A DNA stretch of 64,000 nucleotides from a virus. Taxonomy: Duplodnaviria; Caudoviricetes. The translations under genes were made by a program, and so were the position numbers. Below, piece after piece: positions 16,629-60,926 of this stretch (positions within the stretch are counted from its first letter, which is position 1; every line of letters begins with the position of its first letter). The stretch lies in the IMG/VR virus record IMGVR_UViG_3300017914_002582, positions 3,526-67,525 of that record; one strand, 5' to 3'. The notes beneath the pieces are model-generated. The model was not told the DNA's origin, did not search any database, and was given only the letters and a program-made list of their open reading frames with translations.

Positions 16629-19600
16629 ATGTCACATAACGTCACTGAATCAGTAGCATTAGCACCTCATTCTGTTGAGGCGGCTAATCTTGAAAGCCTA
16701 ATTCCAGATCAGCTTAGGACAAATGCACAGAACTTCTTGGGATTAATAAAAGACTACTACGGCTTTTTGAATCAAGATGGACAAGTATCAGAAATGTCTA
16801 TTAAGGTTCCTACTATTGGTGACGGCGCCGGGCGGAATCTACCTTTTCGTGACTTAAATGTTTCTGACCAAAATATTGGTGTGACAGTAACAGACTTCAC
16901 ACCAAGTGGCTATAACCAGTTGTATAAGCGTGATGAAGCTAATCCTGACTTGTATGTTGGGGTCATTGATAGTTCATATATTATTACAAAGACTGTATCA
17001 TCTTTACCAAACGATCAACTTCGATCTACTTGGGTAATGGCTAATACTACACAAGGCACAACACAGTATGGTAAAATTGATTTTTATGACTCTACATACA
17101 ATGATGATATTACAAATGGTGTTGGTAGTAAAGAACTTTCAGTCGAAGACGTAACTTTTGTGGGTAATCCATCTGGAACCACAACTCCATCTGGAGCTAG
17201 TACTACCTCTTTTAGAGTTGGTAGAATGAATATGGTCGGGCTCACAAATGCTGCAGTACCAAGTGCAACAACGATTGTTACATTTAGTGACATGCCTGTA
17301 TACGGCGGGTCTGGTAGTGGCCTTACAGTTGATATCACTGTTGAAAATGCAAGAGTGGCAACTATTAAACCAAACCGGCCTGGTTTTGGTTATCGTGTTG
17401 GAGAAAACATTCGCTTGACAAATCGTATACTAGATAACACAGTATTCACAGTTGAAAATCTGCAATCATCTCCAAGTAATATAACACGAAGAATTTTAGG
17501 AGAACATGATATTGATAAAACATCTGCTGAGTTTTTAGATAGGATTCAGGCAGAAATTGCAACAGGTATTCCCAATGCTTCTCTACTCGACCGTAGAGCA
17601 TTATATAAAAAGATTGTAGAATACTATAATACCAGAGGCAGTGAAGATAGTATTGTTTCTTTCTTTAAAATCTTTTTTGACGAAGTTGTAGATATATCAT
17701 ATCCTAAAGATCGCTTGTTTATACCTTCTGATAATTCATATCAGGGAACTTCTACAGTAAGCCCGACAAAAGACAAATACATGTACAAGAAGGGCAGTGA
17801 TGACCGAAGACGTATTGCCTTTTACCGAAATAAACAATATTTAAATGAAAAGGCTGGGACATATTTTATTGACTTTGAAGTTGGAGAGAACTATGTATTA
17901 GCAGACTCGACTCCGGTTGGTAACGCAGAAAACTCACGGACATTTACACCCCTATTTGCAGCAGAAGGACAACGTAGAAAAAGTGTTAATGAATTTGCCT
18001 TCACACGCTTGGCTGATGCGGGTATGGGATTTAGCATTAGAGACAATGGTGAGTTAAAAATTTCCGGTAGATTCGGCCGTTACCAAAACGATATCAGTAA
18101 AACCTTTTCGAACTATTGGGACACTTTAATTCCTGAAAATAACCGCGATAAAAAAAGAATCAGATTAGCTATTACCGTTGATATAAGAGAAAACGATGAT
18201 AACAAATACGCAGCGGATTACGGTTCTAAATACGCAGCTTGGGATTCGCCTGAATATCACATCGGGGCAGCTAAATTATCAATAAGTACGATTATTAATA
18301 GTGATAGCCCTCCAGGCTCTATTGAGGGAGAAGATGACGGTAACGTATTTGAAATGGATGACTTTCATACAGTCGGTGGGCCAGTAGAAGATACAAACTT
18401 ATATCCGTCTGCATTAGGTCAGGCTATTAATAGTGGTAGTATAGGTTCCGGTGGTGGACAAGGTAAAGATTATTATGAAAACGCAAATGGAGAGGTTTAT
18501 TTTTACGGATTTGCGTTTATAAATCGTATATGTACAACTCAAGAGCTTCAGAATTACGCAAGGACAGGAGCAATCCCAAGCGATAATATTCTAGACCTAG
18601 ATTTAGATAACGAAGGCAATACATATTTTTATAATAGAAATACCACTAACATAATTGCAAGACAAGTAAAAGGTGATTTTAATAGTGAAGCAAGATATAA
18701 CACCCTTCAAGAAACTAACTTTGGTCTTTCAAGTACTGGCAGTGAATACCCAAGATTTATCTCATGGCTTAATAGCAAAGGATTCCCTTCTGACATAAAC
18801 AGACTACACGATGGTGATAAGTATCAAAATTTTTCATACGTTATTCGTACTGCTCTTTCAGCAAACTTGTGGAAGACTGAATTTAATAAGTTAATACACC
18901 CAGCAGGACTGAAGTTTTTCGTTGCGTTATATCTTGAAGCCGATTTCCGTGTTCAACGTAGATCATTTGAACCACCAAGATTTGAGTGGGTTGAAAAACA
19001 ATACTTAAAAGATATTGCAGCAAATAACCAATTTGAAAAACATAGTCCTCACTATCAGCCTGGTTGGCTTGAAGCACAATTCGTAATTCCGATTGAAATT
19101 GTTGTTTATCGTCTCTTGTCAGCATTCTATGTATTAGAGCAAGCTCAATATAACGCAATTTATGATAACTATTTTAATTCTGACAATGGATTAAGAATCC
19201 GTCAACAAAATGAATTGTCATTGCTTGGTGATACAAAACAATCAAGGTTTGATACTACCAACTTCTCAGACACTTTTATTGAGTTTGAGGGTGATGGCAC
19301 GGGAATGAAAACTGCTGGTAGAATTAATGAAAATTCAGCTTTTGAGGTTTCATTTAGACTTCTCAAAGATAACGCAGTTGGTAAATACGTAGCTGGTTCG
19401 TCATGGACGGGAACTGATGGCCATATTCGTGAAATGTCTATTCGACAAATTATGAATAATGCTGCTGGAGAACGACAAGTAGAAGTATCCATAACCGATA
19501 ATGCAGCTCAGTATTCTACTGCAGATGAAATACACTCGATCAAAGCAATCGCAGATCAATATACTAGGCAGCACGGACAAAAAGGTGTATATTTTAGTGA

Positions 19601-22600
19601 CGAAAATATCACATTTGATTCTGGCGTAAATAATAATTTAAGAGGCGGAACTAGAGGACACACCTTAGTTGTATTTAGAAGATCAGACAGAAAAGTATTA
19701 TTCAATACTACCTATGATACATACGGAGATATTAATAATGCTACCACACTTGCTAATAAAATTAATTCTTATGGCAGTGGCCATGTTATAATCTTATACT
19801 CCCATGATGCTACGGGATGTAATACTGATTTAAGAAATGCTCTTAAGAATTGTGGTGCAGGGGACTCAACAACAACTTGGACAGAACAAAGAGTTCCCCA
19901 TGTGTTTATTGGCATTCGTGGAGGAACCCGTGGAACAGCAATTGAAAGACTTCCAAATCCTTTACTATCGAGTAGTGCTACACAAGAGATACCTATTGCA
20001 ATATGTAACTATGAGGGTACTTCTACTTTTACAGGCGGAGATGAAATATTTAGACAACCTAAATTTAAAGCAATACCGTTAAAAGTAGTATGTCCTAGTA
20101 ATGACTTTATTAACTTAGAATTATTTTCAAATGGTAAAATTGTTGAACACAGAGGTGAAGACGATATTATCCTCCGAAGTGAGCTAGAAGCTTCTGATCC
20201 TAGATATTTTAAAGAAATTAACTATACTGGTTATAATTGGATACATCATCTTCGTGATATTACGCAGGGTATAAGTTCTGCAAATGGTTCGGGTACTATT
20301 TATTATGACGAAACCCTAGGTGGAGTTGTATCAACTGGCAACGAACGTCGGCTTTTCTTGGATAATTTAATTGAAATTGAAGAAGACGCTGAATATGAAA
20401 TTTTTATTACAATTAAGAATTTATTAAAAGATAAAAAAAATAAAATTTATGCTGGTGTAAATTCTACTGATTCATCTGGTTCAAGAGTAGGAACAGATGC
20501 CTTTCATAGTTATAACTATGCATTAGCTTCAGGGTATATCCTCGGCAAAAACGAAGAGAAAACATTTACAAAAGTGTTTAGTGGGTTTAACCCTCCTAAC
20601 GAATTACAATATAGTCAGGCCGGGAGATCAGCCAGAAAATTTGATCCAGGCGCTACTCATTTTGAATTGATGGTAATTTCAAATTATGACGCAGGTAATC
20701 TTGACGGATTTAGTGAGCCATACGTTCCAACTCTTCTTATTAAAGACATAATTATTAAAAGAAAAGATGGTAAAGTAATTTTTGATTCTTTAGCAGATAG
20801 ACGAGACCCCAACTATGGTGTTAAAAAGATTACTACTTCTGCTCTTCCTGTTCTAGATATTGGTGGTAAAAACGGAGTATTTAGAAATACAATGGCAATT
20901 GGCACACTTCAGAAGAATAGCATTCTTGAAGGCGTGACTTCTTTACCACAACCAAAACCAAATTACATAGCTAACCTATATGATTCTTTCTTACCGTTTA
21001 GAGAAGGACGTGGAAATTTCAATGGTTTTGAAAGAAATGGACAAATATCGGAAAACAGTAGAGAACTTAGAACTGACCCCTTCAATAACAAAGCAGTGGT
21101 ATGGGTTGGCAAAAATAGTGGTACTGATAATAATGGAGACGGCGGGTTCAACGGCCCCAAAGTAAGCATTTCTAATCCAGCAAGTGGTTCTTTATATAGG
21201 GTTTCCTTGTTCTTAAAAATTAATCAATCAAGCATTGACTCTGGACGTTACTATTTTGGGTTGAATTCATATAGCGCGGGAGGAAAAGAAACTCCTGTCT
21301 ATTATCGACCGAATTCAAGTAGGACTTTTAAAATCACCGCGGTGAATAACAGTACAGCAGGTACTATAACTATAGACCGTGAACAGACTAATCCGGCCGG
21401 AGCAGTAAGAATCGAAAATGTGGTTGGTACAACACAACTTAATACTGCTATAAACAATCCAATGGATGTTGTTTATTTTAGAAGAGATTCTAACGACAGA
21501 AAAATTCTTAGACTGTATAGCGATGCGGAATTCACAACACTCTTAGACACATCAGCCTATAGTGAATATATCAGCGGAGGTGATGTTAAAATAGTTGCTA
21601 TCACAAATCCATATTTTAGAAGCGGGCCAGCTGAAAGCTTTGAACCAAAGGAAAAGTGGGCTTTGTTTGTATCCTATGTATACACTTCAAACTATGGTAA
21701 CTATACTTTAGACCATGATTTATTTTCAGACGCTGGTATATACGATGTAGAAACTGGAAAACAGATTAACACAATTATTAACATATATGGTCTTGATCCT
21801 GCTGCAGATGAAATCAGAATGAGAGCGTATCAGTATTATAATACATCCTCAACTGAAAGTGAATATGAATGGGTATACCCAAGAATAGATTTAGTTGACG
21901 GGCGGGAACCAACAACTGAAGATATCTTAAGTGGAGAAGCTGTTAAAAATATCGATAACTACCCTTCAAATATTAGAGTAAATAAATCAGCAGTTTCAAA
22001 TGGGCAAGATGGCAATCATGTTTATCTATTTAACGAAGGCTCTTCAACTGTAGGCGAAGTCAGCTCAGCTATTACAACACACCCCGATCCTGATGACGCA
22101 ATTGTACCAGTTACCGATCCGCCCTTGCTAGAGAGAGCTAAGGTGTTGACACCCATAATTAAAGATGTGTCTGGCGATAATGACGGTGAACTTTTGAGTA
22201 GAAGCGGAATATCTAATGTTAGACGGATATCTGAATTTGATCGGCAACATATTACGACAGTAAACCCACGACCTGTTGGTATATATACAGTATTACCAGA
22301 AGACTATACTGTAACTAGAGCATCACATAACCCTGCAACTGATGAGCTCGGAAGTGGTGCTGAATTTAGAGTGCATATTAATGAAAGTTTTGCGTCAGTT
22401 GAAGTTGTAAAACAAGGTATAAACTTTGAAGTCAATGATATAATAACAATTCCAAATAGTGTTTTAGGTGATGAGGGCCCATACCCTGACCTTCAATTTA
22501 AAGTACGAAAGACTGCAGGCGGTAAAATAGAGTTTGAAGAAAAGATGGATGACGCCGTCGGGTATAAACCTGTTTACTTGTCAAGAGACACTAGAGATAC

Positions 22601-25600
22601 CGATAATCCTGCTGGAGTTAGATCAGATGGATTGAAAATTGACAATGAAATTATTAATCCTACAGATGACTTCAATTGGCAAACCGATGTAGAATATGAG
22701 ATTAATTTTAATGTAACAAAATACTTAGATAGAAATACTCCTGCTAATCTGTTTATTGGCGGAGGTGAAATCGGACATTACGAAAGTGAGCAAATCGACC
22801 GTGGGTTTCGTCCGTATAAAGTTGGTAGTGTTGGGGTTAGTACTGGTAATCCTAATGCAAGACAACGTGCCGTAACTAGTTCTCAAGGTGTCGGGCCACA
22901 CGAAGTTGAATTTAAAAGTGCTAGTGAAGGGCTATGTACTATCGAACTTATGATAGACGACGCTGAAGGAGGTATTCGTTTAGCTCTTAACGGTCACGAA
23001 CTTACTGTTAAAAATTCTGGCAACAAAAGGAATATGGATTATAGAAACCAAACCCATATTGAGGTAGACGACGGTGGGAGTAGTATTGATAACAATCCAG
23101 ATAACCTTCTCTATGTCAGAGCAGCTGGCGTGTACACCTTTGAAAGTGATAAACTTGTAAAAGGCAGTAACACAATTCAAATATATAGAAGAGGAAACGT
23201 ATCGGATGGATACGCAGTTAGATGGTTAAGAGTTCTACCGGCAGGTAGCAGTAACGGATTAATTCAGACAGGAACAAACTCACATAACTTAATTATCGAC
23301 CCATCTATCGAAAATAAAAATATCATAATCGAAAAAGACGCGTCTAAAAGAACTAAGTATAATAATAGAACATTTAATTACGATAACATTGATATAAAAG
23401 AGTTTCATTATAAACTTGATGATATTGTAGTTCGGTCTTTAAGAAAAAGAGTTTACTCTAGTAGATTTGAACCTATTGTTGCTGATCCTCCCGCGATTAG
23501 AAATAACATAGAAGGCGGAATTAAATTTATAAACGCTACTGATAGTGATGAGAGTTTTGGCACAGAGCTTTACCGTCCAATCGACCTTGATAGTCTTTCT
23601 GCAGTTGACGGATGCACTTCATTTGGCGCTAAAAGACTGTTTATCCCAGCCATAGAAGAATACGATTCAGCTTCTGGTATTGGGCAAGAGTATGTGGAAT
23701 TTGAAGGAGTAAGAACACCAATACTTGGCATTCCAAAAGGTAACTATAATGTATTAAAATTAAATGCTGATAAAGCTGATGGGCACGGTATTATTTTTGG
23801 AGGTAGTGACAGATCACTTCCGATTGGTACGTTTAAAGCAAACACATACTATGAATTAACTGCTAAGGTATTCATACCTTCTAGTAATACAAAACTTACA
23901 ACCATTTTTGTAATGGCTGGAAGAAATATTCCTTCGTTAGATAAACAAGGGAAAGAAATTAAACGGGCAACAACAGGAATATATGTGTTTGAACTTCCAG
24001 TTGGAAAACACCAAGAGGTGAAAGGTAAATACTACGGATGGGGTGTTTACGACTTGGAAGAAACAAAAGTAAATACACAGGGCGAGTGGGTTGATATTGT
24101 ACACTCATTTAAGACAGGTGCTTTAGACCTTGATGAACAGCCTAAGATTATGTTTGCTACTGGACTTAGAGACGATGCTATTAGAGGTGTTGCGGGTTAT
24201 GGTGGTGATGCTGAAAACGAATCCTTTATGATTCGTGATATTAGAATACTAGAAGGTGTAAACCCAAAAGCGTTTCCTTTTAAAGAAAAGACTGACAGTA
24301 AATACAATGCAATTATTAAACGTAAAAATAATAAAGATATTGTAATTGAAGATAACGTATTGTCAGACAAAACACAGCTAACTATTAATACATCCTACGA
24401 TGAAAGTCCAACAACGACAACATATTCTCTGCGGGATAGTCACCGTGAGTTTGGCAATTTTGAATTAGCTAACCTAGTAGAAACTGAACCGAACTTGATT
24501 GCAGATCATGTCCCCTTTGTACTTAGTGAAGGCCTTGATGTTTCAATTAAAAATCCTAAACTTTTCCCTCTTGGGAATCCTTATGCGACTGATGATGATG
24601 CATCGCCGTTTGGAACAACTTTTGAAAACAGAGTAATAACAGACTTTACTCCGTTCTACGGAAAAGAACCAATTTGGATTGCCGAAAATAGAGATGACGG
24701 CTCCTTCGATAGCTCACCCGCTGGAGCTAAATATGATGGAGGTTTTGAATCTAGTTTTGTAAAAGTAAACCCGAATAGAACATATCGTTGCTCTTGTTGG
24801 ATTCATCAAAGTGATACAACATTTGGTATCGATGATTCACCTTTAGCACCTGGCGGATTAAAGATTATGGGTATCACTGCAAAAAATGCTAGTGGGGATA
24901 CCATTCAGTTGTCTAATATAACAGACGGTGCGACATCTGCTGATTCTCCTTCATTCTTTAATAGCTATGATTTAGGTTTTAATACTACATCAGCTGATAG
25001 CCCAAGTATTGGTGTAAACGACGATAAGTGGTATCTAGTGGTAGGACACATTAGACCATTTGGCCATGTAGGCGAAACAGATCACGCGGATAGTGGTGTT
25101 TACCCACCTTCTAGAAGAGGCAAAAAAGAAAGAACACTAATCAATAGTGGGGATTGGAAGTTTAAGTCTAACGTAGATAAAATTAAACTGTACTGTACAC
25201 ACTTTGCAAACTCACAGCAATCGAAGAATCCAGTTAAGTTCTTTGCTCCAAGAATTGAAGAGATAAATGGTACAGAGCCGACAATATCAGAATTAACGAG
25301 TGGTAAGGTATTGGCTGAAAACTACAGACACGATAAAATATATCCTGTCACAGTTGCATCTTGGGAAGACTCAATGCATAACTCAAGAGACCTATTAATT
25401 AATGACGATGATTTCAGACACACAATTCTAGGCAATACTTTTAACGTTTCATTAAATGATCCATATAATTCACAAAATAGATCAGACTATTTAGAAGTGG
25501 TCATTACCGACAAAAAGGGAATTGAAGACACTATTATTACTATAACTACACCGTCTGATTCTAGAGATATTACTATTCCGATTCTTGATCCAGCTGGGGA

Positions 25601-26336
25601 AACTGCTCAGTGTAACATTGATTGGGGTGATGGAAGTGTCGATGCTATCTCAAGTGGGAGTGATTCTAATTTAACTCACACTTACGCGACAGCTGGAAAT
25701 TATACTATTACAATCAGTGGTGAATTTTATAAGGTATCCGCGGATGATAAAACCGGAGCAGGAGTTACTAACTTTAAATCAGATGTAAGAACTTTCTACT
25801 TAGGAAGCTCACCAGTAACCGAATTTAATAAAGCGTTAAAAGATTGTACCGGACTAACATCCTTTACAACTGCTGAAGGTATCACTAACACTACTGCAGT
25901 AACTGTATTTTCGGAAGTATTAAGAGGTTGTAGTTCGCTTACCTCGGCCGATGTTTCTGGTCTAAATACAAGTAACGCAACTAGAATGGACGGCATGTTC
26001 AGAGACTGCGGAACGTTTACGATTACAGGTCTATACAAATTAGACTTAGCTTCTTTAGAAACAGGAGCTTCAAAAGGTCTTGCAAACTTTTTGATTGGAA
26101 GTAAAATTAATACAGAATCACATGAAAGAGCACTTCTAACATGGGCAGGTGATGATTCTACTCCAGACGCTCTTCATTATCACATGGGGACATCAAACTT
26201 CCGAATCGGTAATGAATTTGATTCACCGAATGATGAAAATCCAACACCGCTTGTGAATAATGCATATACAAAACTTGATATTATAAAACGATGGAATATA
26301 ACTATATCATCCGGCGGCGGATTTATCGGAGATTAA
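16629..26336 (+). CDS. gp7: Giant gp7-like baseplate wedge protein with appended adhesin/lectin-like domains, 3235 aa
   Basis: gp7-like segments HDIDKTSAEFLD, LYKKIVEYYNTRGSEDSI..FFKIFF and DGDKYQNFSYVIRT...LIHPAGLKFF; located between gp6 and gp8. Confidence 0.75.
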   Translation: MSHNVTESVALAPHSVEAANLESLIPDQLRTNAQNFLGLIKDYYGFLNQDGQVSEMSIKVPTIGDGAGRNLPFRDLNVSDQNIGVTVTDFTPSGYNQLYKRDEANPDLYVGVIDSSYIITKTVSSLPNDQLRSTWVMANTTQGTTQYGKIDFYDSTYNDDITNGVGSKELSVEDVTFVGNPSGTTTPSGASTTSFRVGRMNMVGLTNAAVPSATTIVTFSDMPVYGGSGSGLTVDITVENARVATIKPNRPGFGYRVGENIRLTNRILDNTVFTVENLQSSPSNITRRILGEHDIDKTSAEFLDRIQAEIATGIPNASLLDRRALYKKIVEYYNTRGSEDSIVSFFKIFFDEVVDISYPKDRLFIPSDNSYQGTSTVSPTKDKYMYKKGSDDRRRIAFYRNKQYLNEKAGTYFIDFEVGENYVLADSTPVGNAENSRTFTPLFAAEGQRRKSVNEFAFTRLADAGMGFSIRDNGELKISGRFGRYQNDISKTFSNYWDTLIPENNRDKKRIRLAITVDIRENDDNKYAADYGSKYAAWDSPEYHIGAAKLSISTIINSDSPPGSIEGEDDGNVFEMDDFHTVGGPVEDTNLYPSALGQAINSGSIGSGGGQGKDYYENANGEVYFYGFAFINRICTTQELQNYARTGAIPSDNILDLDLDNEGNTYFYNRNTTNIIARQVKGDFNSEARYNTLQETNFGLSSTGSEYPRFISWLNSKGFPSDINRLHDGDKYQNFSYVIRTALSANLWKTEFNKLIHPAGLKFFVALYLEADFRVQRRSFEPPRFEWVEKQYLKDIAANNQFEKHSPHYQPGWLEAQFVIPIEIVVYRLLSAFYVLEQAQYNAIYDNYFNSDNGLRIRQQNELSLLGDTKQSRFDTTNFSDTFIEFEGDGTGMKTAGRINENSAFEVSFRLLKDNAVGKYVAGSSWTGTDGHIREMSIRQIMNNAAGERQVEVSITDNAAQYSTADEIHSIKAIADQYTRQHGQKGVYFSDENITFDSGVNNNLRGGTRGHTLVVFRRSDRKVLFNTTYDTYGDINNATTLANKINSYGSGHVIILYSHDATGCNTDLRNALKNCGAGDSTTTWTEQRVPHVFIGIRGGTRGTAIERLPNPLLSSSATQEIPIAICNYEGTSTFTGGDEIFRQPKFKAIPLKVVCPSNDFINLELFSNGKIVEHRGEDDIILRSELEASDPRYFKEINYTGYNWIHHLRDITQGISSANGSGTIYYDETLGGVVSTGNERRLFLDNLIEIEEDAEYEIFITIKNLLKDKKNKIYAGVNSTDSSGSRVGTDAFHSYNYALASGYILGKNEEKTFTKVFSGFNPPNELQYSQAGRSARKFDPGATHFELMVISNYDAGNLDGFSEPYVPTLLIKDIIIKRKDGKVIFDSLADRRDPNYGVKKITTSALPVLDIGGKNGVFRNTMAIGTLQKNSILEGVTSLPQPKPNYIANLYDSFLPFREGRGNFNGFERNGQISENSRELRTDPFNNKAVVWVGKNSGTDNNGDGGFNGPKVSISNPASGSLYRVSLFLKINQSSIDSGRYYFGLNSYSAGGKETPVYYRPNSSRTFKITAVNNSTAGTITIDREQTNPAGAVRIENVVGTTQLNTAINNPMDVVYFRRDSNDRKILRLYSDAEFTTLLDTSAYSEYISGGDVKIVAITNPYFRSGPAESFEPKEKWALFVSYVYTSNYGNYTLDHDLFSDAGIYDVETGKQINTIINIYGLDPAADEIRMRAYQYYNTSSTESEYEWVYPRIDLVDGREPTTEDILSGEAVKNIDNYPSNIRVNKSAVSNGQDGNHVYLFNEGSSTVGEVSSAITTHPDPDDAIVPVTDPPLLERAKVLTPIIKDVSGDNDGELLSRSGISNVRRISEFDRQHITTVNPRPVGIYTVLPEDYTVTRASHNPATDELGSGAEFRVHINESFASVEVVKQGINFEVNDIITIPNSVLGDEGPYPDLQFKVRKTAGGKIEFEEKMDDAVGYKPVYLSRDTRDTDNPAGVRSDGLKIDNEIINPTDDFNWQTDVEYEINFNVTKYLDRNTPANLFIGGGEIGHYESEQIDRGFRPYKVGSVGVSTGNPNARQRAVTSSQGVGPHEVEFKSASEGLCTIELMIDDAEGGIRLALNGHELTVKNSGNKRNMDYRNQTHIEVDDGGSSIDNNPDNLLYVRAAGVYTFESDKLVKGSNTIQIYRRGNVSDGYAVRWLRVLPAGSSNGLIQTGTNSHNLIIDPSIENKNIIIEKDASKRTKYNNRTFNYDNIDIKEFHYKLDDIVVRSLRKRVYSSRFEPIVADPPAIRNNIEGGIKFINATDSDESFGTELYRPIDLDSLSAVDGCTSFGAKRLFIPAIEEYDSASGIGQEYVEFEGVRTPILGIPKGNYNVLKLNADKADGHGIIFGGSDRSLPIGTFKANTYYELTAKVFIPSSNTKLTTIFVMAGRNIPSLDKQGKEIKRATTGIYVFELPVGKHQEVKGKYYGWGVYDLEETKVNTQGEWVDIVHSFKTGALDLDEQPKIMFATGLRDDAIRGVAGYGGDAENESFMIRDIRILEGVNPKAFPFKEKTDSKYNAIIKRKNNKDIVIEDNVLSDKTQLTINTSYDESPTTTTYSLRDSHREFGNFELANLVETEPNLIADHVPFVLSEGLDVSIKNPKLFPLGNPYATDDDASPFGTTFENRVITDFTPFYGKEPIWIAENRDDGSFDSSPAGAKYDGGFESSFVKVNPNRTYRCSCWIHQSDTTFGIDDSPLAPGGLKIMGITAKNASGDTIQLSNITDGATSADSPSFFNSYDLGFNTTSADSPSIGVNDDKWYLVVGHIRPFGHVGETDHADSGVYPPSRRGKKERTLINSGDWKFKSNVDKIKLYCTHFANSQQSKNPVKFFAPRIEEINGTEPTISELTSGKVLAENYRHDKIYPVTVASWEDSMHNSRDLLINDDDFRHTILGNTFNVSLNDPYNSQNRSDYLEVVITDKKGIEDTIITITTPSDSRDITIPILDPAGETAQCNIDWGDGSVDAISSGSDSNLTHTYATAGNYTITISGEFYKVSADDKTGAGVTNFKSDVRTFYLGSSPVTEFNKALKDCTGLTSFTTAEGITNTTAVTVFSEVLRGCSSLTSADVSGLNTSNATRMDGMFRDCGTFTITGLYKLDLASLETGASKGLANFLIGSKINTESHERALLTWAGDDSTPDALHYHMGTSNFRIGNEFDSPNDENPTPLVNNAYTKLDIIKRWNITISSGGGFIGD

Positions 26337-26391: not shown

Positions 26392-28302
26392 ATGGCAGCT
26401 ATTATTACAGACGAATTCAGAAAAAACAACATCGAAACATTTGTAAAGGATGTTGAAGATTCACCAGCCTTAGATGGTCATAATTATTATCTTGGTATCG
26501 GTAAAACCGATCCATGGCCGGCACAAGGTGGAGTGACCGAAACTAGTAGTGATTTTGAAGTACGGTTCCCAAGCGGAAGTATTGATGAAAAAGATGATAT
26601 TAAAAATAACTTAATGACTCTTATTAAGATTGACTCGACTGATATTCATCGACTCGTGCCAAAAGTTGACTTTAGAATCGGAGAAATATATAAGATATTT
26701 GATCCAACTGATCCTACATGTTTTGACTATGATACTGTTCAAAACCATCTTCCCTGTTATGCTACATATACTGACACAGATGGTCATACAAAAATTTATA
26801 TGTGTTTGGGTAATAACGGTTTTAGTAGAACCGCTACTAACATTCCAGCAATGGATGATCCTGCTGATGCAACATCTAACTTTCCCTTTGGTGTAAAACA
26901 AAATACACTATCAGCTGGTGGTGATGGATACATCTGGGCTTATCTAGACTACTTAAATGACGATGATCCTAATAACCTGTTTGCAGATTCAAAAAGTTTT
27001 CAGTCACTTAGTAAGGATAGTGAAATTGACAGAAAAGTTTTCAATGAACTTGGTGGTCACGCCGGTGTTAGCGATGGCAGAACAAGAGCAACTAGAGCTA
27101 GTGCAGGACTATTGTATGGATTTAAAATTGTAAATGGCGGTTCTGGCTATCCAGTCCCCGCCGGCCAAACCAGCACTACACTCACTGCAAAAATTATTGG
27201 AGAAAGAATTAAAAACGACAGCGATGATTTTGCACAAGAAAGAATCGGCAACGCAATCACAGCAGCAGAAGATAACGATGTAACTGTTACTGTCGTACAG
27301 GGCCCTAATGGGGGTGTTGTACAAAGTGTAGAGTGGGATTTATCAAAAGCCAAACAGCTCGGTTTTGGTCGAACTGACTCGGTTGATTCTGAAGGAAACG
27401 CGGTTACAGGATTAACACGAAGTGATGTTAATGAACGAGGCGGTATTCTTAGAGCTTCTTTAGTAATTACTGACCCCTCAATATTTGAATCAAATGATGA
27501 ATTAAAGGCAGAAATTGTCGAAGCAGATATCCGACCTTTAATTGCACCACAATTTGGTTTTGGACATTCTGTTTTAACTGATCTGCCTTCTTACTACGCA
27601 GGAATTTCAGCTGACTTTGAAGGGACTATCGGTGAAAACAAAGCATCAGCACAGGATTCACCTCCAAGACACACAGCTGAAGCATTAGTTGATGTATCTT
27701 TTAGACAAGTGTCTCTATTAAGAGAAAAAACAGGAGAGCCGATTAGAACAGGAGAAGACGATTCTCCATGGCCAGATCCTCTAATTACTCCAGAAAAAGC
27801 AGTAAACTGTCTACCTTACTTTTTCGTACCATTTAAAGCTAACCAAGAACAACACACCCAAGTTCCAGCATCTTTAGCTGGAAAAGGCGGAGATGGTGTG
27901 TATGTTGAGCTCGCCGGAACAGTTTCTGGTGGTGGAGAAAAACCAAAGGCATGGGTAGATAAAATAAGCCCATTCTATAGCACTGATCCAGTTGATAATG
28001 TTCCTCAAACCCCAGAAACCGATACTGGTGGTGGTTTCAGAATATATTACCACCAAAACTCAGATAAGAGAATCAATAAAGCTCCGTTCCCTCGCGGGGA
28101 GAGTGAAGGTGTAGAAGTTAATATCTATGATTCGGCTGGGACTCTTTTGACTGATTCAATTAATGAAAAATGTTTCTATACTTTTATTGGTAATCCAGAA
28201 TATGAAAGAACAAGGGGCGAAGTTATCTTCGCAGAAAATAGAACACCGATTCGGCGAGATGCTCAACAAACAGAAGAAGTAAGACTAATTATTCAATTCT
28301 AA
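26392..28302 (+). CDS. gp8: Baseplate wedge subunit gp8
   Basis: MAAIITDEFRKNN, YYLGIGKTDPWP, YKIYMCLGN-like segment, DGYIWAYL, C-terminal GEVIFAENRTPIRRDAQQTEEVRLIIQF. Confidence 0.88.
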   Translation: MAAIITDEFRKNNIETFVKDVEDSPALDGHNYYLGIGKTDPWPAQGGVTETSSDFEVRFPSGSIDEKDDIKNNLMTLIKIDSTDIHRLVPKVDFRIGEIYKIFDPTDPTCFDYDTVQNHLPCYATYTDTDGHTKIYMCLGNNGFSRTATNIPAMDDPADATSNFPFGVKQNTLSAGGDGYIWAYLDYLNDDDPNNLFADSKSFQSLSKDSEIDRKVFNELGGHAGVSDGRTRATRASAGLLYGFKIVNGGSGYPVPAGQTSTTLTAKIIGERIKNDSDDFAQERIGNAITAAEDNDVTVTVVQGPNGGVVQSVEWDLSKAKQLGFGRTDSVDSEGNAVTGLTRSDVNERGGILRASLVITDPSIFESNDELKAEIVEADIRPLIAPQFGFGHSVLTDLPSYYAGISADFEGTIGENKASAQDSPPRHTAEALVDVSFRQVSLLREKTGEPIRTGEDDSPWPDPLITPEKAVNCLPYFFVPFKANQEQHTQVPASLAGKGGDGVYVELAGTVSGGGEKPKAWVDKISPFYSTDPVDNVPQTPETDTGGGFRIYYHQNSDKRINKAPFPRGESEGVEVNIYDSAGTLLTDSINEKCFYTFIGNPEYERTRGEVIFAENRTPIRRDAQQTEEVRLIIQF

Positions 28303-47026: not shown

Positions 47027-47039
47027 GCTATCTTGTAAC

Positions 47040-47057: not shown

Positions 47058-47061
47058 AGGT

Positions 47062-47874
47062 ATGTCACAGCCAAATTCTAGACAAACATTAGTTGATTAT
47101 TGTTTACGTGCTCTCGGGGCACCAGTAATTGAGATTAACGTAGACGATGACCAGTTAGGTGATCGCCTAGATGAAGCCTTACAGTTTTATCAAGAGTATC
47201 ATTCAGATGCCACTATTCGCAGATTTAGAAAATACACTCTTACGGCAGATGATATAACAAACCAATACATCACAATACCAGATACATATCTGACAATAAC
47301 GCGGGTGTTACCATTTGATTCTAACGGTGCAGGAACTGGTGATTTCAATATCGAGTATCAGATGATGCTAAACGATATCTATGATCTTCGGGCACCCCAA
47401 CATTCGATGCTTAACTATACTATGACACACCAGCATCTAGCGCTTATTGACCAAGTATTTGATGGTAAAGACCAGACGGTTCGTTACAATAGACATATCA
47501 ATAAATTATTTATTGAAACACGGTGGGGGACTGATATCAAAGAGGGTTCTATTATTGTGTTTGAAGGTTATGAAGCAATCGTACCAAGAACTTCACACAC
47601 AGCAACTACATACGGCTCTGGTTATGACGCAGACGCACCGACTGAAGCAACGTCAACACAAATTTATAACGACATGTTTTTGAAAAAATATCTAACTGCT
47701 CTTATTAAAAAACAATGGGGTATTAATCTTAAAAAGTTTGAGGGTATACAGCTTCCAGGCGGAGTAACACTTAATGGCCAACAAATCTTTGATGAAGCAG
47801 TTGAAGAGATAAATAGGCTGGAAGAAGAAGTACAACTTAAACATGAGATGCCTCCAGCATTTTATGTAGGATAA
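47062..47874 (+). CDS. gp13: Neck protein gp13
   Basis: SRQTLVDYCLRALGAPVIEINVDDDQ, WGINLKKFEGIQLPGGVTLNGQQIFDEA. Confidence 0.96.
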   Translation: MSQPNSRQTLVDYCLRALGAPVIEINVDDDQLGDRLDEALQFYQEYHSDATIRRFRKYTLTADDITNQYITIPDTYLTITRVLPFDSNGAGTGDFNIEYQMMLNDIYDLRAPQHSMLNYTMTHQHLALIDQVFDGKDQTVRYNRHINKLFIETRWGTDIKEGSIIVFEGYEAIVPRTSHTATTYGSGYDADAPTEATSTQIYNDMFLKKYLTALIKKQWGINLKKFEGIQLPGGVTLNGQQIFDEAVEEINRLEEEVQLKHEMPPAFYVG

Positions 47875-47883: not shown

Positions 47884-48783
47884 ATGCCAAAGAATACTTA
47901 CTTTACACAAGGTTCTGTTTCAGAACAGAATTTCTATGAAGAGCTTGTAATAGAAGCTATGGGTATTTATGGCACGGACGTATACTATATGCCGCGTCAC
48001 ATTGTGTCGATTGATACTGCAACTAACGAAGTGATAGAATCTAGATTTGATGAATCTCACCTTATTGAAATGTATCTTGAATCTACTGAAGGTTTTGAAG
48101 GTGACGGTACTTTATTAAGCAAGTTTGGTTTAGAAATACGAGACCAAGTAAACTTAGTTGTGGCTAGAAGAACTTTTCTTAACACAATGCAAGAAAGTCA
48201 AGAAGACCGAATCAGACCGACGGAAGGTGACCTAATCTATCTTCCTATGTCAAAATCGTTGTTTGAGATAAAATTCGTTGAACACGAACAGCCTTTTTAT
48301 CAGTTAAAGAATTTACCAGTCTTTAAATTGCAATGTGAAATGTATGAATACAGCGGGGAAGATATCGACACAGGTATCGGACAAGTTGATTCGGTTCAAT
48401 CAATACACGCTGAAAGTACAAGTCTTGAGGTTGAACTTCAAACTGGATCGTTCTTACTTGGTGAAGATTTAACATTTACATTCTCCGATGGAACAACGGC
48501 GGATGGAGAGTTGTTGAGTTGGTTCACTGATGTTTCTCCGTATGTATTTAATGTGGGAACTTTGACCTACACTACTGCTACTGGTGACATTCCCAAGCTT
48601 GGGAAGGATGTTACTTTTGTAGGAAAGACTTCCGGAGCAACTGGTAAGATTGTAGAGGACGAAGATTTAACTTCTAATAAATATGACAATGATAAGTTTG
48701 ATGATGCATCAGACTTTGAAGCACTTAATGATAACTACTTAGACTTTAGTGAGTTTAATCCATTCGGAGAGCCAAATGCTTAG
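47884..48783 (+). CDS. gp14: Neck protein gp14
   Basis: SEQNFYEELVIEAMGIYGTDVYYMPR, LSKFGLEIRD, RPTEGDLIYLP, FEIKFVEHEQPFYQL, LDFSEFNPFGE. Confidence 0.96.
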   Translation: MPKNTYFTQGSVSEQNFYEELVIEAMGIYGTDVYYMPRHIVSIDTATNEVIESRFDESHLIEMYLESTEGFEGDGTLLSKFGLEIRDQVNLVVARRTFLNTMQESQEDRIRPTEGDLIYLPMSKSLFEIKFVEHEQPFYQLKNLPVFKLQCEMYEYSGEDIDTGIGQVDSVQSIHAESTSLEVELQTGSFLLGEDLTFTFSDGTTADGELLSWFTDVSPYVFNVGTLTYTTATGDIPKLGKDVTFVGKTSGATGKIVEDEDLTSNKYDNDKFDDASDFEALNDNYLDFSEFNPFGEPNA

Positions 48784-49513
48784 TGGTATACATTTCTATC
48801 ATGCAACCATAAAAAGGATTGTGTCGGTGTTCGGTACATGTTTTAATAACATTATTATCGGACGCTATGACGGTATAAAAATGACTAACACCCAACGTGT
48901 TCCAATATCGTATGGGCCAAGAGAAAAGTTTACTGGTAGAATGAATCAAGACCTCAATGAACAGAGAGTAGCGATCAAGCTCCCTAGGATGTCATTTGAG
49001 ATTACAAGTATTGCATACGATCAAAGTACGAAGTTAAATCGTCTTAATAGAAAATTGACAGACGGCTCAGACACTACGAAAAAGACTACGACATACCAAA
49101 GTGTTCCGTATACACTAGGAATGCAGTTAAATATTCTAGCAAGAAACCAAGAAGATGCACTACAGATTGTCGAACAGATACTTCCAACATTTTCTCCTGA
49201 ATATACGGTTAGTGTAAAAGATATTGATGGGCCGGGTTCTATTACAGACGTGCCAATTATCTTAGACGGCGTAACATTTACTGATGATTACGAAGGAGAC
49301 TTTACTGGAAGAAGAACATTAATATACACACTTGATTTTACAATAAAGGTTAAGTTCTCGCCTGATAGCTCTGAAAATGCTATCATTAGAAAAGTCACAG
49401 CAAATATCTTAGATAACAGTAACGTAACAAGTCTTACGGATTCTAAGATACTAAATACAATTATTGTTAGACCGACGCAGCAAGACTTAGAAGATTTTGG
49501 GTTTTCAGAATAA
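48776..49513 (+). CDS. gp15: Tail sheath stabiliser / terminator gp15
   Basis: HFYHATIKRIVSVFGTCFNNI, VPISYGPREKF, LPRMSFEI, QIVEQILPTFSPEY, RTLIYTLDF. Start at ATG 48776. Confidence 0.96.
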   Translation: MLSGIHFYHATIKRIVSVFGTCFNNIIIGRYDGIKMTNTQRVPISYGPREKFTGRMNQDLNEQRVAIKLPRMSFEITSIAYDQSTKLNRLNRKLTDGSDTTKKTTTYQSVPYTLGMQLNILARNQEDALQIVEQILPTFSPEYTVSVKDIDGPGSITDVPIILDGVTFTDDYEGDFTGRRTLIYTLDFTIKVKFSPDSSENAIIRKVTANILDNSNVTSLTDSKILNTIIVRPTQQDLEDFGFSE

Positions 49514-51177
49514 TGAGTATTAGAATATATACAACCACTATAAATGTCGATAAAAAGTTTGATGTAGAATTTACACCACAGAATTTTACTATGTCAGGCT
49601 TTCCGAGACAAAATGCAATTAGTTCGTTAAGTGTATTAAGTGGAACAGAATCTAACATTGATAGAATAAAGCATAACACTTTCGTATTTAATAGTGTGTC
49701 GGCAAGTGGAGGTACTGGTTCTGATGCTCGGTTTGATGTAACAGTAAATACTTTTACTGGTGCTGTTACTTCCGTTTCAATAAGAAATAATGGTTTAAAT
49801 TATACACTTGACGATGAGTTGACTATTGACGGCACAAAAATTGGTGAAGACTCACCAGATACACCATTAAGAAACCTTGTGTTGACTGTTGCGGGTGTTT
49901 CAAGCAATGGAGAAATTACAGCAGCTACAATTACAAGTGGTGACTCTCCTGAATCTGATCGCGTTGATAATTTTTCTCCTTCTATTATTCAACGAAGTGT
50001 TCCAGTAATTCCTGATTCACCAAATTCTAGTAGTGGCAATTTAGGATCAGTAGACATTACACTTGATAGAGTAACTGGAGAAATTACCGCTGTTGAATTA
50101 AATGACGGGGGTGGAAATTATAATATAAACGATGTATTGAAAGTTTCTAATGCAGATATAAGCATTCCAGCTGAACCAGATTCACCTGTTAATATAGAAA
50201 CTCTTCTATTTAATTTTAACAATTCACCTGTCTTTAATAGTCCTAATAGTCCTGCTTCTGGTAATCCACCAGACAATATTCCTGTTTTTCAAATAGATGA
50301 CACACCATTACCTGATAGCCCATTCCTCTTTCTAAGAGTAGATTCTATAACTAATACAGAGTATAATGGCAAATATAAATTAAATGGATTTGTTAATGAT
50401 AGACCAAACTATACACTAGATAGCCCTAACAGTCCGAACTCACCGTCTATAGCAGTAAACATTCGGTTTGAGGATAATTTCTGGAAAATAAACGATCCAG
50501 ATAGAACTATATGTATAAACTCACAAAATTTAGCGGTACCGCCGAGAGATGGTTGGGTTATTGCTATTGGAAGTGTATTATCAGTAGCCGATCAACCGTT
50601 TGTCCCAATATATAACAGTCCTAACAGTCCAGCTTCTGGTAATCCACCAGATAATGAACCACCGGCCGATCCGAATCTTGATGTGGTTCGTCTTACTACA
50701 AAAGAAGATAGTCCCTATTTAAAAAATGAGTTAGTGACTACAAAAGGTTCATTCAAATCAGCTAATGTTGACAGCCCAAATACATTAGTGAATGCTAAGA
50801 TTATTGTTAATGATCTTGGTGAACTATTTACCAAAGGGGAAATCCTTCAAGGGTTGGATTCAAAAGTGACAAAAACTATTCTTTCTATAAAAGACCACGT
50901 TCCGCCAGAATTAGTAATTGAAGAACCTGTTGAAGAAATAGTTATTCCGTTAGGTGGAGATGAAGTTTTTGTTGATAGTTCACCTTTCGATACACCTGCA
51001 AATATCCAAGGGGATACTCCCACTGGAATTGTTTTAGAAGGTCTAATATTAAACTCGCCAGGTGGTATCCTTGTTGCTAGTGATTCTCCCTTATCGGGAA
51101 TAAGCACCTTTGGATTTGATTTACCAGATGGTGGAACTAATAGCCCAGGAGTAGCGGATGACTCAAGTCCGTCATAA
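49513..51177 (+). CDS. DSP/NSP-rich putative virion protein, 554 aa
   Basis: Translationally coupled to gp15 (TAATG). Contains 9 DSP and 9 NSP tripeptides and two GxNY beta-repeat units of the kind seen in phage structural proteins. Confidence 0.7.
   Translation: MSIRIYTTTINVDKKFDVEFTPQNFTMSGFPRQNAISSLSVLSGTESNIDRIKHNTFVFNSVSASGGTGSDARFDVTVNTFTGAVTSVSIRNNGLNYTLDDELTIDGTKIGEDSPDTPLRNLVLTVAGVSSNGEITAATITSGDSPESDRVDNFSPSIIQRSVPVIPDSPNSSSGNLGSVDITLDRVTGEITAVELNDGGGNYNINDVLKVSNADISIPAEPDSPVNIETLLFNFNNSPVFNSPNSPASGNPPDNIPVFQIDDTPLPDSPFLFLRVDSITNTEYNGKYKLNGFVNDRPNYTLDSPNSPNSPSIAVNIRFEDNFWKINDPDRTICINSQNLAVPPRDGWVIAIGSVLSVADQPFVPIYNSPNSPASGNPPDNEPPADPNLDVVRLTTKEDSPYLKNELVTTKGSFKSANVDSPNTLVNAKIIVNDLGELFTKGEILQGLDSKVTKTILSIKDHVPPELVIEEPVEEIVIPLGGDEVFVDSSPFDTPANIQGDTPTGIVLEGLILNSPGGILVASDSPLSGISTFGFDLPDGGTNSPGVADDSSPS
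50236..50655 (+). repeat. Duplicated 42 bp unit encoding NSPNSPASGNPPDN
   Basis: 50236-50277 and 50614-50655 differ at 4 positions, all synonymous third positions. Confidence 0.85.
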
Positions 51178-53244: not shown

Positions 53245-55041
53245 ATGGGATTCCTAGTCTCTCCAGGCGTCGAAGTCAAAGAAATTGACTTGACGAATGT
53301 AATACCTGCAGTATCCACCTCGATTGGTGGTTATACTGGCAGATTCAAGTGGGGGCCTGTTGGAGAACTTATTACGGTAAGTTCAGAAAACGACCTTGCA
53401 CTATTGTTTGGTAAACCAGACGAAACACACGCTCAATCCTTTTTACAGGCAGCGAGCTTTTTAAAGTACGGTAATACTCTAAAGGTATCACGTGCGGTTT
53501 CTGATGGTGATACAATTACACGCAGTGCAGCGGTTGGAATTGCTGCTGATGCAACAGCGTACGCAGTGAATAACCGTGATGACTACGACACTACAACTGT
53601 TGCAGCATCAAACGTAGCAATTGCACGTTGTAGAGGTGCAAGAGGTAATAGCTTGGAAGTCATTGTTGCTAGAAACACTGACCTCGACGCGCAAGCTGGT
53701 GAAGATTCTCCTAGCGTTTCAGGCGCTCGGACATTGCTGAAAAGTAATTTCGATGCTGATCCCGGCAGTGTAAATACTGATGACGGCGGAGACGAAATTC
53801 ATGTTCTAGTCATTGACAAAGAAGGTGAATTTACTGGCACAAAGAATGAAGTATTGGAAAAATACCAAGGGTTGTCTTTGTGTAAAGACGCTTTAAATAG
53901 TGACGGTTCTTCTAACTATTATTACGATGTAATCAATAATGCTTCACAGTTTATTTTTATTAATAAACTTGGAGATGATACTTCTGGACTGTATCCAGGC
54001 GCTGATGACACAGTAGCAAATATAAATGGTGATGAAGAAATTACAACCGCAGATGACGTTGACGGCAAGTTGGATAATAACGTATTTGTTGCTACTTTGG
54101 AAAGCGGCGCCGATGGTACTCTAGTTGCAGGTTCTTATACTGCAGACGATACCGGACTTGGTTTGTTTTCTGATTCTGAAACAGTGGATGTAAATCTAAT
54201 GTTTGTAGATGCTGGACAACTTGACGATACCGCTCAGGTTACAGTAGATAAGAAGTTGATGGAAATAGCTACTAAGCGTAAAGACGTTGTTGCGTTTGTA
54301 TCAGCTCCAGTAGAAGCAACTACAGGTGTTCAGTTTGACACTTCTGAAGCTGATAAACTAGCCACAGTAACAACTAGAAAAACTGCACTTGGCACAATGG
54401 ACAGCTACCATTTCATGGACAGCACTCCGTTATATGTATATAACAAGTATGCTGATAACTATGTATACATTGCTGCTTCTGGTCACATGGCTGGTCTATG
54501 TGCAAATACAGATGATGTAGCAGATGCTTGGTTCTCACCTGCAGGTTATAACCGTGGTGGTCTAAGAAGTGTTACTAAGTTAGCGTTCAACCCGAACCAA
54601 TCAGCTAGAGACACACTGTACAAAGCAAATATTAACCCGATTGTTTCATTCCCGGGCCAAGGTATTCTCTTGTTCGGTGATAAAACTGGTCAGTCTAAAG
54701 CTTCAGCATTCGACAGAATTAATGTTCGTAGATTGTTCATTACTCTTGAGAAAGCTATTGCTACCGCTTCTAAATTCCAACTGTTCGAGTTAAACGATGA
54801 GTTTACAAGAGCACAATTCCGTAACTTGGTTGAACCATTTTTGCGGGATGTTAAAGGTCGGCGTGGAATTACTGACTTCTTGGTTGTTTGTGACGAAACA
54901 AACAATACAGGACAAGTAATCGACACGAATCGTTTCGTTGCAGATATCTATATCAAACCTGCACGTTCAATTAACTTCATCACACTCAACTTCGTAGCAA
55001 CCCGTACTGGTGTTGACTTCTCTGAAGTTGTTAGTGGCTAA
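53245..55041 (+). CDS. gp18: Tail sheath protein gp18
   Basis: MGFLVSPGVEVKEIDLT, FKWGPV, WFSPAGYNRG, FDRINVRRLF, IKPARSINFITLNFVATRTGVDF. Confidence 0.98.
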   Translation: MGFLVSPGVEVKEIDLTNVIPAVSTSIGGYTGRFKWGPVGELITVSSENDLALLFGKPDETHAQSFLQAASFLKYGNTLKVSRAVSDGDTITRSAAVGIAADATAYAVNNRDDYDTTTVAASNVAIARCRGARGNSLEVIVARNTDLDAQAGEDSPSVSGARTLLKSNFDADPGSVNTDDGGDEIHVLVIDKEGEFTGTKNEVLEKYQGLSLCKDALNSDGSSNYYYDVINNASQFIFINKLGDDTSGLYPGADDTVANINGDEEITTADDVDGKLDNNVFVATLESGADGTLVAGSYTADDTGLGLFSDSETVDVNLMFVDAGQLDDTAQVTVDKKLMEIATKRKDVVAFVSAPVEATTGVQFDTSEADKLATVTTRKTALGTMDSYHFMDSTPLYVYNKYADNYVYIAASGHMAGLCANTDDVADAWFSPAGYNRGGLRSVTKLAFNPNQSARDTLYKANINPIVSFPGQGILLFGDKTGQSKASAFDRINVRRLFITLEKAIATASKFQLFELNDEFTRAQFRNLVEPFLRDVKGRRGITDFLVVCDETNNTGQVIDTNRFVADIYIKPARSINFITLNFVATRTGVDFSEVVSG

Positions 55042-59657: not shown

Positions 59658-60926
59658 ATGTTTAATTCAGAAAACGCACAGAAAAAGTGGGCGCCTCTGT
59701 TGGATCACACAGACTGTGCTCCAATTCAGGACTCATATCGTAGAGCAGTAACAGCTGTTCTCTTGGAAAACCAAGAAAAGGCAATGGTAGAAGAACGGGC
59801 TCATCAGTCTTTCCAGATTAATGAGACTAACGAAACAGTTGCAGGTAGCATTGAAAAGTTCGATCCAGTACTGATTGCTATGATTAGACGGGCAATGCCT
59901 TCACTCATCGCTTATGATGTGTGCGGTGTACAACCTATGGCTGGCCCGACTGGTTTGATCTTCGCGATGAAGCCGCAATACAAGAACGCGTCTAAAGAGG
60001 GTGTTGCTGACGAGGTTGAAGCATTCACTGATTCTCCGATCTTGACTGGCTTCTCTGGTGTAGGCTCAGAACGTGCATCTTCACTTGACGGATCAGCTGG
60101 TGATGCATTGTTGACATCAGAAGGTGAAGCACTGTCTGACGCAGCATCATCTAATTCAGATGCTGAAATCGGTAAGATGGGTTTTGAAATCACGAAAGCG
60201 ACTGTAACAGCTCGTACTCGTGCTTTGAAAGCTGGCTACACAATGGAATTGGCACAAGACTTGAAAGCAATTCATGGTCTTGACGCTGAAGCTGAGTTGG
60301 CTAACATCTTGTCAACAGAAGTATTGGCTGAAATCAACCGTGAAATCATCGGTAAGATTCGGTCTAATGCTAAATCTCACACTGTTGGTTCAGATTCTAT
60401 CTTCACAATGACAGATACTACTGACAACTTGGGTGCACGTTGGGGTCAAGAAAAGTTCCAAGCACTTGTTTATCGTATTGAACAGGCTGCTAACAAGATC
60501 GGTCAAGAAACTCGTCGCGGAAAAGGTAACTACGTTATCGTTTCTCCGAACGTAGGTTCAGCATTGGCTGCATCTGGTAACTTGAACTACAGCGACGCGT
60601 TGACATCTACTGGTCTGAACATCGACACAGTTGGTAACACATTCGCGGGTACATTGAACGGTGCTGTTAAGGTATATATTGACCCTTACCAGACTACCGA
60701 TCAGGTAATCGTTGGTTATCGTGGTGCTAACCCCTACGATGCTGGTATGTTCTACTGTCCTTATGTTCCGTTGACAATGGTCAAAGCTGTTGGTGAAGAT
60801 GACTTCCAGCCCCGTATCGCGTTCAAGACTCGTTACGGTCTGCAGGATAACCCGCTTCACAGCACAGCTGCAGGAGTGGCAGCTAACAACCCCTACTTCC
60901 GTAAGTTTACTGTTGCAGCACTGTAA
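59658..60926 (+). CDS. gp23: Major capsid protein gp23
   Basis: KWAPLLDH, AVTAVLLENQE, VCGVQPMAGPTGLIFAM, RALKAGYTMELAQDLKAIHGLDAEAEL, YCPYVPL, FQPRIAFKTRYG. Confidence 0.99.
   Translation: MFNSENAQKKWAPLLDHTDCAPIQDSYRRAVTAVLLENQEKAMVEERAHQSFQINETNETVAGSIEKFDPVLIAMIRRAMPSLIAYDVCGVQPMAGPTGLIFAMKPQYKNASKEGVADEVEAFTDSPILTGFSGVGSERASSLDGSAGDALLTSEGEALSDAASSNSDAEIGKMGFEITKATVTARTRALKAGYTMELAQDLKAIHGLDAEAELANILSTEVLAEINREIIGKIRSNAKSHTVGSDSIFTMTDTTDNLGARWGQEKFQALVYRIEQAANKIGQETRRGKGNYVIVSPNVGSALAASGNLNYSDALTSTGLNIDTVGNTFAGTLNGAVKVYIDPYQTTDQVIVGYRGANPYDAGMFYCPYVPLTMVKAVGEDDFQPRIAFKTRYGLQDNPLHSTAAGVAANNPYFRKFTVAAL

Follow-up and report, generated by a model that had tools for sequence, protein, structure and literature searches.

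The window analysed here comprises 64 kb of a 67.5-kb metagenomic contig (IMG/VR record IMGVR_UViG_3300017914_002582) from a phage known from metagenomes. Its gene content is that of the late structural module of a T4-like myovirus. The genes comprise a gp33-like coactivator, gp59, gp32 and the baseplate genes for a gp48/54-like protein, gp53, gp5, gp25 and gp6; a gp7-like protein of 3235 amino acids (aa), gp8, a DUF4815/VrlC protein and a fibre protein of 2280 aa, then an enzyme island; gp13, gp14, gp15, a 554-aa protein, both terminase subunits, sheath and tube; and portal, prohead protease, scaffold, major capsid protein, UvsY and UvsW. In its capsid protein, the phage has about 50% identity to cyanomyoviruses, Pelagibacter phage HTVC008M and Phage C48C1. 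The subject of this analysis is a tripeptide in the outer virion proteins, Asp-Ser-Pro (DSP) or Asn-Ser-Pro (NSP), together [DN]SP. An original prediction, read by eye from the DNA, had taken DSP for a sequon of protein O-glycosylation by the enzyme island. Six proteins of the window carry the motif; the fibre is listed last as an outer protein without it (SP, Ser-Pro; nt, first nucleotide of a site).

16629-26336, forward strand: gp7-like giant baseplate protein, 3235 aa; 6 DSP (nt 18243, 18303, 24834, 24942, 24996, 26220); 6 of 13 SP are DSP
26392-28302, forward strand: gp8 baseplate wedge protein, 636 aa, Pfam Phage-Gp8; 3 DSP (nt 26458, 27655, 27760); 3 of 4 SP are DSP
28310-33343, forward strand: VrlC/DUF4815 protein, 1677 aa, Pfam DUF4815; 4 DSP (nt 29645, 31850, 32723, 33011) and 1 NSP (residue 1386)
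49513-51177, forward strand: 554-aa protein between gp15 and gp16; 9 DSP and 9 NSP; 18 of 21 SP have D or N before the Ser
53245-55041, forward strand: tail sheath gp18, 598 aa, Pfam sheath domains; 1 DSP (nt 53704, residues 154-156)
59658-60926, forward strand: major capsid protein gp23, 422 aa, Pfam Gp23; 1 DSP (nt 60030, residues 125-127)
33556-40398, forward strand: fibre protein, 2280 aa; no [DN]SP, 1 SP

Tripeptides were counted in the translations of the 45 gene-sized open reading frames of the window. Expectations were derived from the composition of each protein, from a first-order Markov model and from 2000 within-protein shuffles, and all 8000 tripeptides were ranked. DSP occurs in frame exactly 24 times, the number that had been estimated by eye. 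Composition predicts 4.5 occurrences and the Markov model 5.4; the shuffles had a mean of 4.5 and a maximum of 12. The coordinates given originally were confirmed, with one correction of a single nucleotide (29645 in place of 29644). DSP ranks first among the 8000 tripeptides by over-representation, with a Poisson p of 1e-10. In 300 shuffled proteomes, the smallest p of any tripeptide was 2e-6. All 24 copies are located in the six outer virion proteins, which bears out the predicted confinement to outer structural proteins. None occurs in the remaining 39 proteins, among them the fibre of 2280 aa and the products of the enzyme island. On the sense strand, all 24 copies of the DNA pattern for DSP are in frame 0, with none in the other two frames, and the Ser codons are mixed (16 TCN, 8 AGY). 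The signal is therefore one at the protein level, as had been proposed from the mixed codons. The frame restriction and the mixed codons rule out an origin at the DNA level. A bias in composition or dipeptides is ruled out by the shuffles and the Markov expectation. The second most over-represented tripeptide of the window proteome is GGG (34 against 10.2 expected, p = 3e-9), presumably owing to Gly-rich fibre and baseplate proteins.

The enrichment of DSP is real, but its definition was too narrow. Among all X-S-P tripeptides of the window, Asp (24) is followed by Asn with 10 copies against 4.2 expected. NSP behaves as DSP does, so the motif is really [DN]SP. A comparison of the six outer proteins with all others yielded 34 [DN]SP against 4.2 expected in the former and none against 4.8 expected in the latter. 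The pooled zero of the non-carrier proteins is significant, whereas the zero of any single non-structural protein is not. The same holds for the fibre: its lack of the motif was correctly noted, but with 0.8 copies expected the zero is not significant on its own. The motif tolerates little else. In the window, ESP and other neighbouring tripeptides are not enriched, DTP is present at 4 against 4.5 expected, the D-X-P and D-S-X series contain nothing else enriched, and tripeptides of DS with A, I, L, V, M or T as the third residue do not exceed expectation.

The distribution beyond the window was studied in 80 loci around homologues of the large terminase and in the loci of homologues of the 554-aa protein (loci are given by L numbers). 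The relatives were grouped by the identity of their large terminase to that of the window, at least 80% for the clade and 64-72% for more distant phages. The clade pool was restricted to unique proteins and excluded duplicates of the window's own. In the relatives with at least 80% identity, [DN]SP occurs 116 times against 18.3 expected, and 43% of the SP dipeptides have D or N before the Ser. In the 64-72% group, 26 copies face 36.7 expected, and the share is 7%. The motif is thus a trait of one clade of marine T4-like phages. Its carriers in the clade are the neck protein or a gp15 extension, sheath (14 against 2.6 expected), capsid (7 against 0.9), VrlC, gp7-like proteins and the portal. 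Within the clade pool it is absent from terminase, gp13, gp14, gp16, tube, protease and scaffold. Individual contigs agree with the pool. DSP ranks first and NSP second among the tripeptides of G002, an independent contig of 37 kb. On the 105-kb contig G001 (IMGVR_UViG_3300025137_000020), 22 of 24 sites are located within the structural module, against 6.7 expected. Two controls have [DN]SP at or below expectation, namely the 119-kb contig G004, which belongs to the distant group, and Phage C48C1 with its complete genome (OQ984149.1, L151-L158). The proteome of Phage C48C1 has extremes of its own, GNY (89 against 9) and YSR (67 against 9), suggestive of a repeat protein of very large size.

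When 162 unique sites of the window phage and its relatives were profiled, the first position was D in 96 cases and N in 66. Thr is no substitute for Ser, with 36 DTP against 121 DSP in the clade pool. The profile has no extended context; only Ser-, Asn- and Pro-rich surroundings are seen, which are produced by tandem copies. The differing flanks and the missing context rule out a single repeated domain that was copied between proteins. Many sites precede hydrophobic, strand-like sequence.

The 554-aa protein has no Pfam family, and its matches to PHROG virion structural proteins are weak. It is encoded separately from gp15 in the window (48749-51177) and in the L004 lineage. Several other relatives encode its homologue as a fused C-terminal part of the tail terminator gp15 (L002:10001-12115; also L013, L016 and L021, with gp15 homologues of 698-977 aa). 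This fusion places the 554-aa protein at the neck of the particle, where it probably forms a neck or collar appendage. Its sites mostly separate repeated beta-rich units and include runs such as NSPNSPNSP. The Atlas model of the protein is poor, with a predicted local distance difference test (pLDDT) of 0.53. The segment NSPNSPASGNPPDN is present twice, at residues 242-255 and 368-381; this internal duplication supplies four NSP sites.

The location of the sites in sheath and capsid was compared with T4. Residues 4-88 and 295-596 of the window sheath align to residues 3-87 and 345-654 of the T4-type sheath. The unaligned stretch, residues 89-300, is the counterpart of domains I and II of T4 gp18. 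These domains are protease-resistant and solvent-exposed, and domain I protrudes from the tail (PMC3004832). All sheath sites of the clade are located in this exposed insertion, at reference positions 100-272, and the AlphaFold model (mean pLDDT 76) has every one of them in a loop. In the window sheath model, D154 and S155 are part of a loop and P156 is the first residue of a helix. The capsid site of the window falls in segment 124-150, which is unaligned to T4 gp23 and variable among relatives. Capsid sites of the clade are found in this variable segment and near the C-terminus. The capsid model was too poor for use (pLDDT 52). The earlier placement of these sites in variable loops, expected to be exposed, is thus supported by the model for the sheath; for the capsid, the variability of the segment stands.

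The motif is retained in some proteins and turns over in others. Between the 554-aa protein and a homologue with 42% identity, 11 of 18 sites are kept as [DN]SP, 4 of them as D/N swaps. At this identity, about 1.3 of 18 tripeptides are expected to remain intact by chance. Sites 422 and 457 of gp8 are present as NSP in the 45%-identical orthologue of G001. The gp7-like orthologue of G001 has four sites, of which one is common with the window and three are particular to the lineage. Gain and loss have made most sites in sheath, capsid, VrlC and gp7 differ from one lineage to the next. A sequon would be expected to look like this, constant in its local sequence and free in its positions within exposed loops. 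The best explanation is that [DN]SP is subject to positive as well as purifying selection where the virion is exposed to solvent.

The length of three residues, the specificity for Ser, the exposure, the confinement to the clade and the partly floating positions make a recognition site for covalent modification the best explanation of the motif. The enrichment, its protein-level nature, its restriction to exposed virion proteins and to the clade, and the conservation with D/N interchange and turnover of the sites are shown; a modification, its chemistry and its writer are inferred. Tentatively, and with somewhat less than an even chance of being right, [DN]SP is proposed as a putative surface sequon for covalent modification of the virion by a writer other than the enzyme island. 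The tripeptide would be the minimal recognition site, and the modification would be centred on the Ser or on the adjacent Asx (Asp or Asn) or Pro. The carriers would be proteins of the baseplate periphery, the neck appendage, the outer sheath domains and the capsid loops. Modification would take place in the cytoplasm of the infected cell, before or during assembly, and the particle surface would carry many copies of the mark. Either the host or a phage gene beyond the sequenced structural module could supply the writer. In this fuller form, [DN]SP would be the sequon of an undescribed cytoplasmic system that decorates capsid, neck, sheath and baseplate, the whole particle exterior, in a clade of abundant marine T4-like phages; this is possible, and a shade more speculative than the sequon as such.

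Several points weigh against a modification. Conformational reasons alone could preserve a three-residue motif, and the Ser-Pro at the helix start of the one modelled window site is compatible with ordinary capping. No writer gene co-occurs with the motif in the available sequence. The clade genomes are incomplete metagenomic contigs throughout. The relatives share phylogeny, so that pooled p-values overstate independence; the contrast between orthologous proteins of the two identity groups is plain despite this kinship.

The main rival is a structural motif that stays unmodified. In exposed loops and between the beta-rich units of the neck protein, Asx-Ser-Pro would be favoured for beginning a strand or helix or for making a linker stiffer; drift, or selection for rigid loops or for resistance to proteases, would have spread it through the clade. 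The helix start at P156, the strand-like sequence after many sites and the position of the neck-protein sites between repeated units all fit such a role, and conservation alone cannot tell structure from modification. Distant relatives, however, manage the same folds without the motif, as seen from the 7% against 43% of SP in orthologous proteins, and loop sites come and go between close lineages. Thr, Glu and Gln do not substitute, though they would be adequate for most capping or turn roles. A classical Asx-turn is impossible with this motif, because the residue at the second place after the Asx is Pro, which lacks an amide hydrogen. A purely structural role is therefore considered unlikely, while being the most serious competitor of the sequon.

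The enzyme island was the writer named in the original prediction, which placed it at 41890-47026: Ser would be O-glycosylated by its glycosyltransferases and radical-SAM enzymes, resulting in a glycan coat on capsid, sheath and baseplate. The relevant genes extend to 47074. The features of the island are as follows (GT, glycosyltransferase family; PLP, pyridoxal phosphate).

41309-47074, mixed strands: enzyme island of eight genes, annotated with Pfam and NCBIfam
within 41309-47074: a 193-aa protein and a 230-aa protein, no family assigned
41890-42495, forward strand: GT34-like protein
42452-43321, forward strand: HisC-like PLP aminotransferase
43977-44636, reverse strand: 219-aa protein, no family assigned
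44633-45598, reverse strand: radical-SAM/SPASM enzyme 1 (PF04055, 47.6 bits; PF13186, 51.5 bits)
45571-46401, reverse strand: radical-SAM/SPASM enzyme 2 (PF04055, 44.8 bits; PF13186, 28.9 bits)
46385-47074, reverse strand: weak GT29-like gene

Both radical-SAM enzymes have a Radical_SAM and a C-terminal SPASM domain above the Pfam cut-off, and the weak GT29-like protein has a paralogue within the island. Homologues of the first radical-SAM enzyme are numerous. The three bacterial homologues examined (46-47% identity) are all encoded in surface-polysaccharide loci, beside sugar epimerases, dehydratases, DegT aminotransferases, GT2 glycosyltransferases, methyl- and acetyltransferases, a Wzy polymerase and ABC exporters. 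This neighbourhood indicates a glycan-related rather than a peptide-maturase system. A maturase of ribosomally synthesised and post-translationally modified peptides was rejected for the island enzymes, as no NCBIfam maturase came near its cut-off and the three homologues belong to polysaccharide loci. The glycan character that had been ascribed to the island thus holds; judged from domains and gene neighbourhoods, the island is very probably glycan-related. A radical-SAM homologue of Phage C48C1 (37% identity) is located near a carbamoyltransferase and a glycosyltransferase, in a phage without [DN]SP enrichment.

Besides the window, the cassette was seen in L004, L109 (8095-14394) and L111-L114. 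Its eight-gene order is conserved in at least five phage lineages, always beside fibre, VrlC or baseplate genes. This constant neighbourhood characterises the cassette as a mobile module of the structural region, whose target may be the virion, the host envelope or DNA.

The enzymes of the island, their polysaccharide-related homologues, the location beside fibre or baseplate genes and the joint presence of island and motif in two motif-rich lineages, the window and the L004/L114 type, could all speak for glycosylation by the island. The co-occurrence across phages, a check put forward with the original prediction, does not support it. Island and motif occur together only in these two lineages and dissociate in both directions. 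In L109, L111, L112 and L113, the complete cassette with the same gene order adjoins VrlC, gp8, gp7-like and fibre genes, but the proteins beside it have 3 [DN]SP against 8.8 expected. In VrlC, 14 of 25 SP dipeptides are [DN]SP within the clade, against 1 of 12 in the island-bearing phages outside it (Fisher p = 0.011). Conversely, G002 is motif-rich and has no island gene across its fully sequenced gp32-to-gp23 module. G001 is motif-rich as well, and neither a radical-SAM domain nor a homologue of an island protein is present in the 105 kb searched, though this contig is estimated to be 59% complete and an island could sit in unsequenced DNA. Wherever the island was seen, however, it lies within the structural module, which is complete in both G001 and G002. 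The motif-rich L002 and L014 have no island at the syntenic site; for the L002 lineage, the absence rests on the close relative G001. The island is neither necessary nor sufficient for the motif, and O-glycosylation by its enzymes is improbable.

With the island decoupled from the motif, the writer of the proposed sequon would be encoded by the host or elsewhere in the phage genome, beyond the structural module. A Pfam scan of the window contig, including the unassigned proteins, found no enzyme other than those of the island. The same scan of 30 unassigned proteins of G001 gave loose candidates: an APH-like phosphotransferase, an AGT-like glycosyltransferase, a weak 2-oxoglutarate (2OG) oxygenase and a methyltransferase. 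G001 also has a gene cluster (L098:8585-19289 and L099:268-1688) with a serine hydroxymethyltransferase, a tryptophan-halogenase-like protein (E = 5e-112), a C5 DNA methylase, the APH-like and AGT-like proteins, a thymidylate-synthase-like protein and the weak 2OG oxygenase. From its gene content, this cluster may be a pathway for DNA hypermodification. The baseplate block of G001 encodes a 527-aa protein with a glycoside hydrolase family 10 domain (L097:7829-9409, reverse strand; E = 5e-49). It may be a virion-borne polysaccharide depolymerase and has no counterpart in the window.

A third alternative is a docking motif that is read by another protein, conceivably the long fibre when stowed along baseplate, sheath, neck and head, or else a decoration protein or an environmental ligand. 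The carriers gp7, gp8, VrlC, sheath domains I and II, neck appendage and capsid do trace the outer surface of the particle, the 2280-aa fibre itself has no copy, and domain I of the T4 sheath binds retracted fibres (PMC3004832). Three residues, however, offer little binding specificity, no candidate reader domain was found, and the missing motif in the fibre is within expectation. Docking is accordingly rated as quite improbable. An artefact, whether of chance, of composition, of a repeat in the DNA or of a single domain duplicated across proteins, is hardly credible: a single protein with an internal duplication contributes 18 of the 34 [DN]SP, but no shuffle exceeded 12 DSP, the Markov expectation is 5.4, the pattern keeps to frame 0 with mixed codons, and the signal persists in five other proteins and in independent relatives.

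Should [DN]SP be modified, phage particles would have their first defined sequon for decoration. Sequence alone would then predict chemically masked surfaces of uncultured marine phages, with a bearing on adsorption, aggregation, decay and grazing of marine viruses. For a sugar-enzyme island next to fibre genes, an action on the virion cannot be assumed, as the island moves between phages independently of the motif.

Full-text literature searches yielded nothing relevant on a DSP or NSP sequon or on glycosylated virions of marine phages. The O-glycosylation sequon of Bacteroidetes, D-(S/T)-(A/I/L/V/M/T), resembles the phage motif in its length of three residues, in the acidic residue that immediately precedes the hydroxyl-bearing one and in being present in many unrelated surface proteins; it acts only on exported (periplasmic) proteins (PMC8550257). 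This analogy of the original prediction fails at all three positions. The first position is Asp in Bacteroidetes, whereas the phage profile has D and N in the proportions given above and orthologous D/N swaps. The second is Ser or Thr, whereas the phage motif is enriched for Ser only, and the third is A, I, L, V, M or T in place of the Pro of the phage motif. The Bacteroidetes system also needs export, and virion proteins of tailed phages assemble in the cytoplasm.

A cytoplasmic precedent comes from the mycobacteriophages studied by Freeman et al. in 2023, a work cited in PMC12801897. Their glycosyltransferases are reportedly encoded near structural genes and attach glycans in the cytoplasm to capsid and tail proteins; the sugars are said to be located on C-terminal extensions of the capsid and tail-tube subunits. 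We know of no defined tripeptide sequon for this glycosylation. The window motif differs by its location in internal loops of six proteins and by not tracking glycosyltransferase genes, which did not co-occur with the carrier structural proteins.

Radical-SAM chemistry on Ser is known from the anaerobic sulfatase-maturating enzymes (anSME) of the radical-SAM/SPASM class, which convert Ser or Cys to formylglycine in (C/S)-x-(P/A)-x-R. A Ser target with a nearby Pro and the enzyme class of the island are shared features. The spacing differs, with S-x-P in the anSME motif and S-P in the phage motif, and Arg is not enriched at positions +2 to +6 in the 162-site profile. The bacterial homologues of the island enzymes are encoded in polysaccharide loci and not beside sulfatases, and island and motif lack co-occurrence.

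The hydroxyproline-rich glycoproteins of plants and algae have Ser-Pro repeats in extended linkers as sites of Pro hydroxylation and O-glycosylation. No prolyl hydroxylase was found in the window; the sole candidate is the weak match to a 2OG oxygenase in G001. These glycomodules differ from the phage motif in that they depend on the chemistry of the eukaryotic secretory pathway and do not require an Asx before the Ser. The likeness lies in the architecture of the 554-aa protein, whose runs such as NSPNSPNSP recall the Ser-Pro repeats of these linkers.

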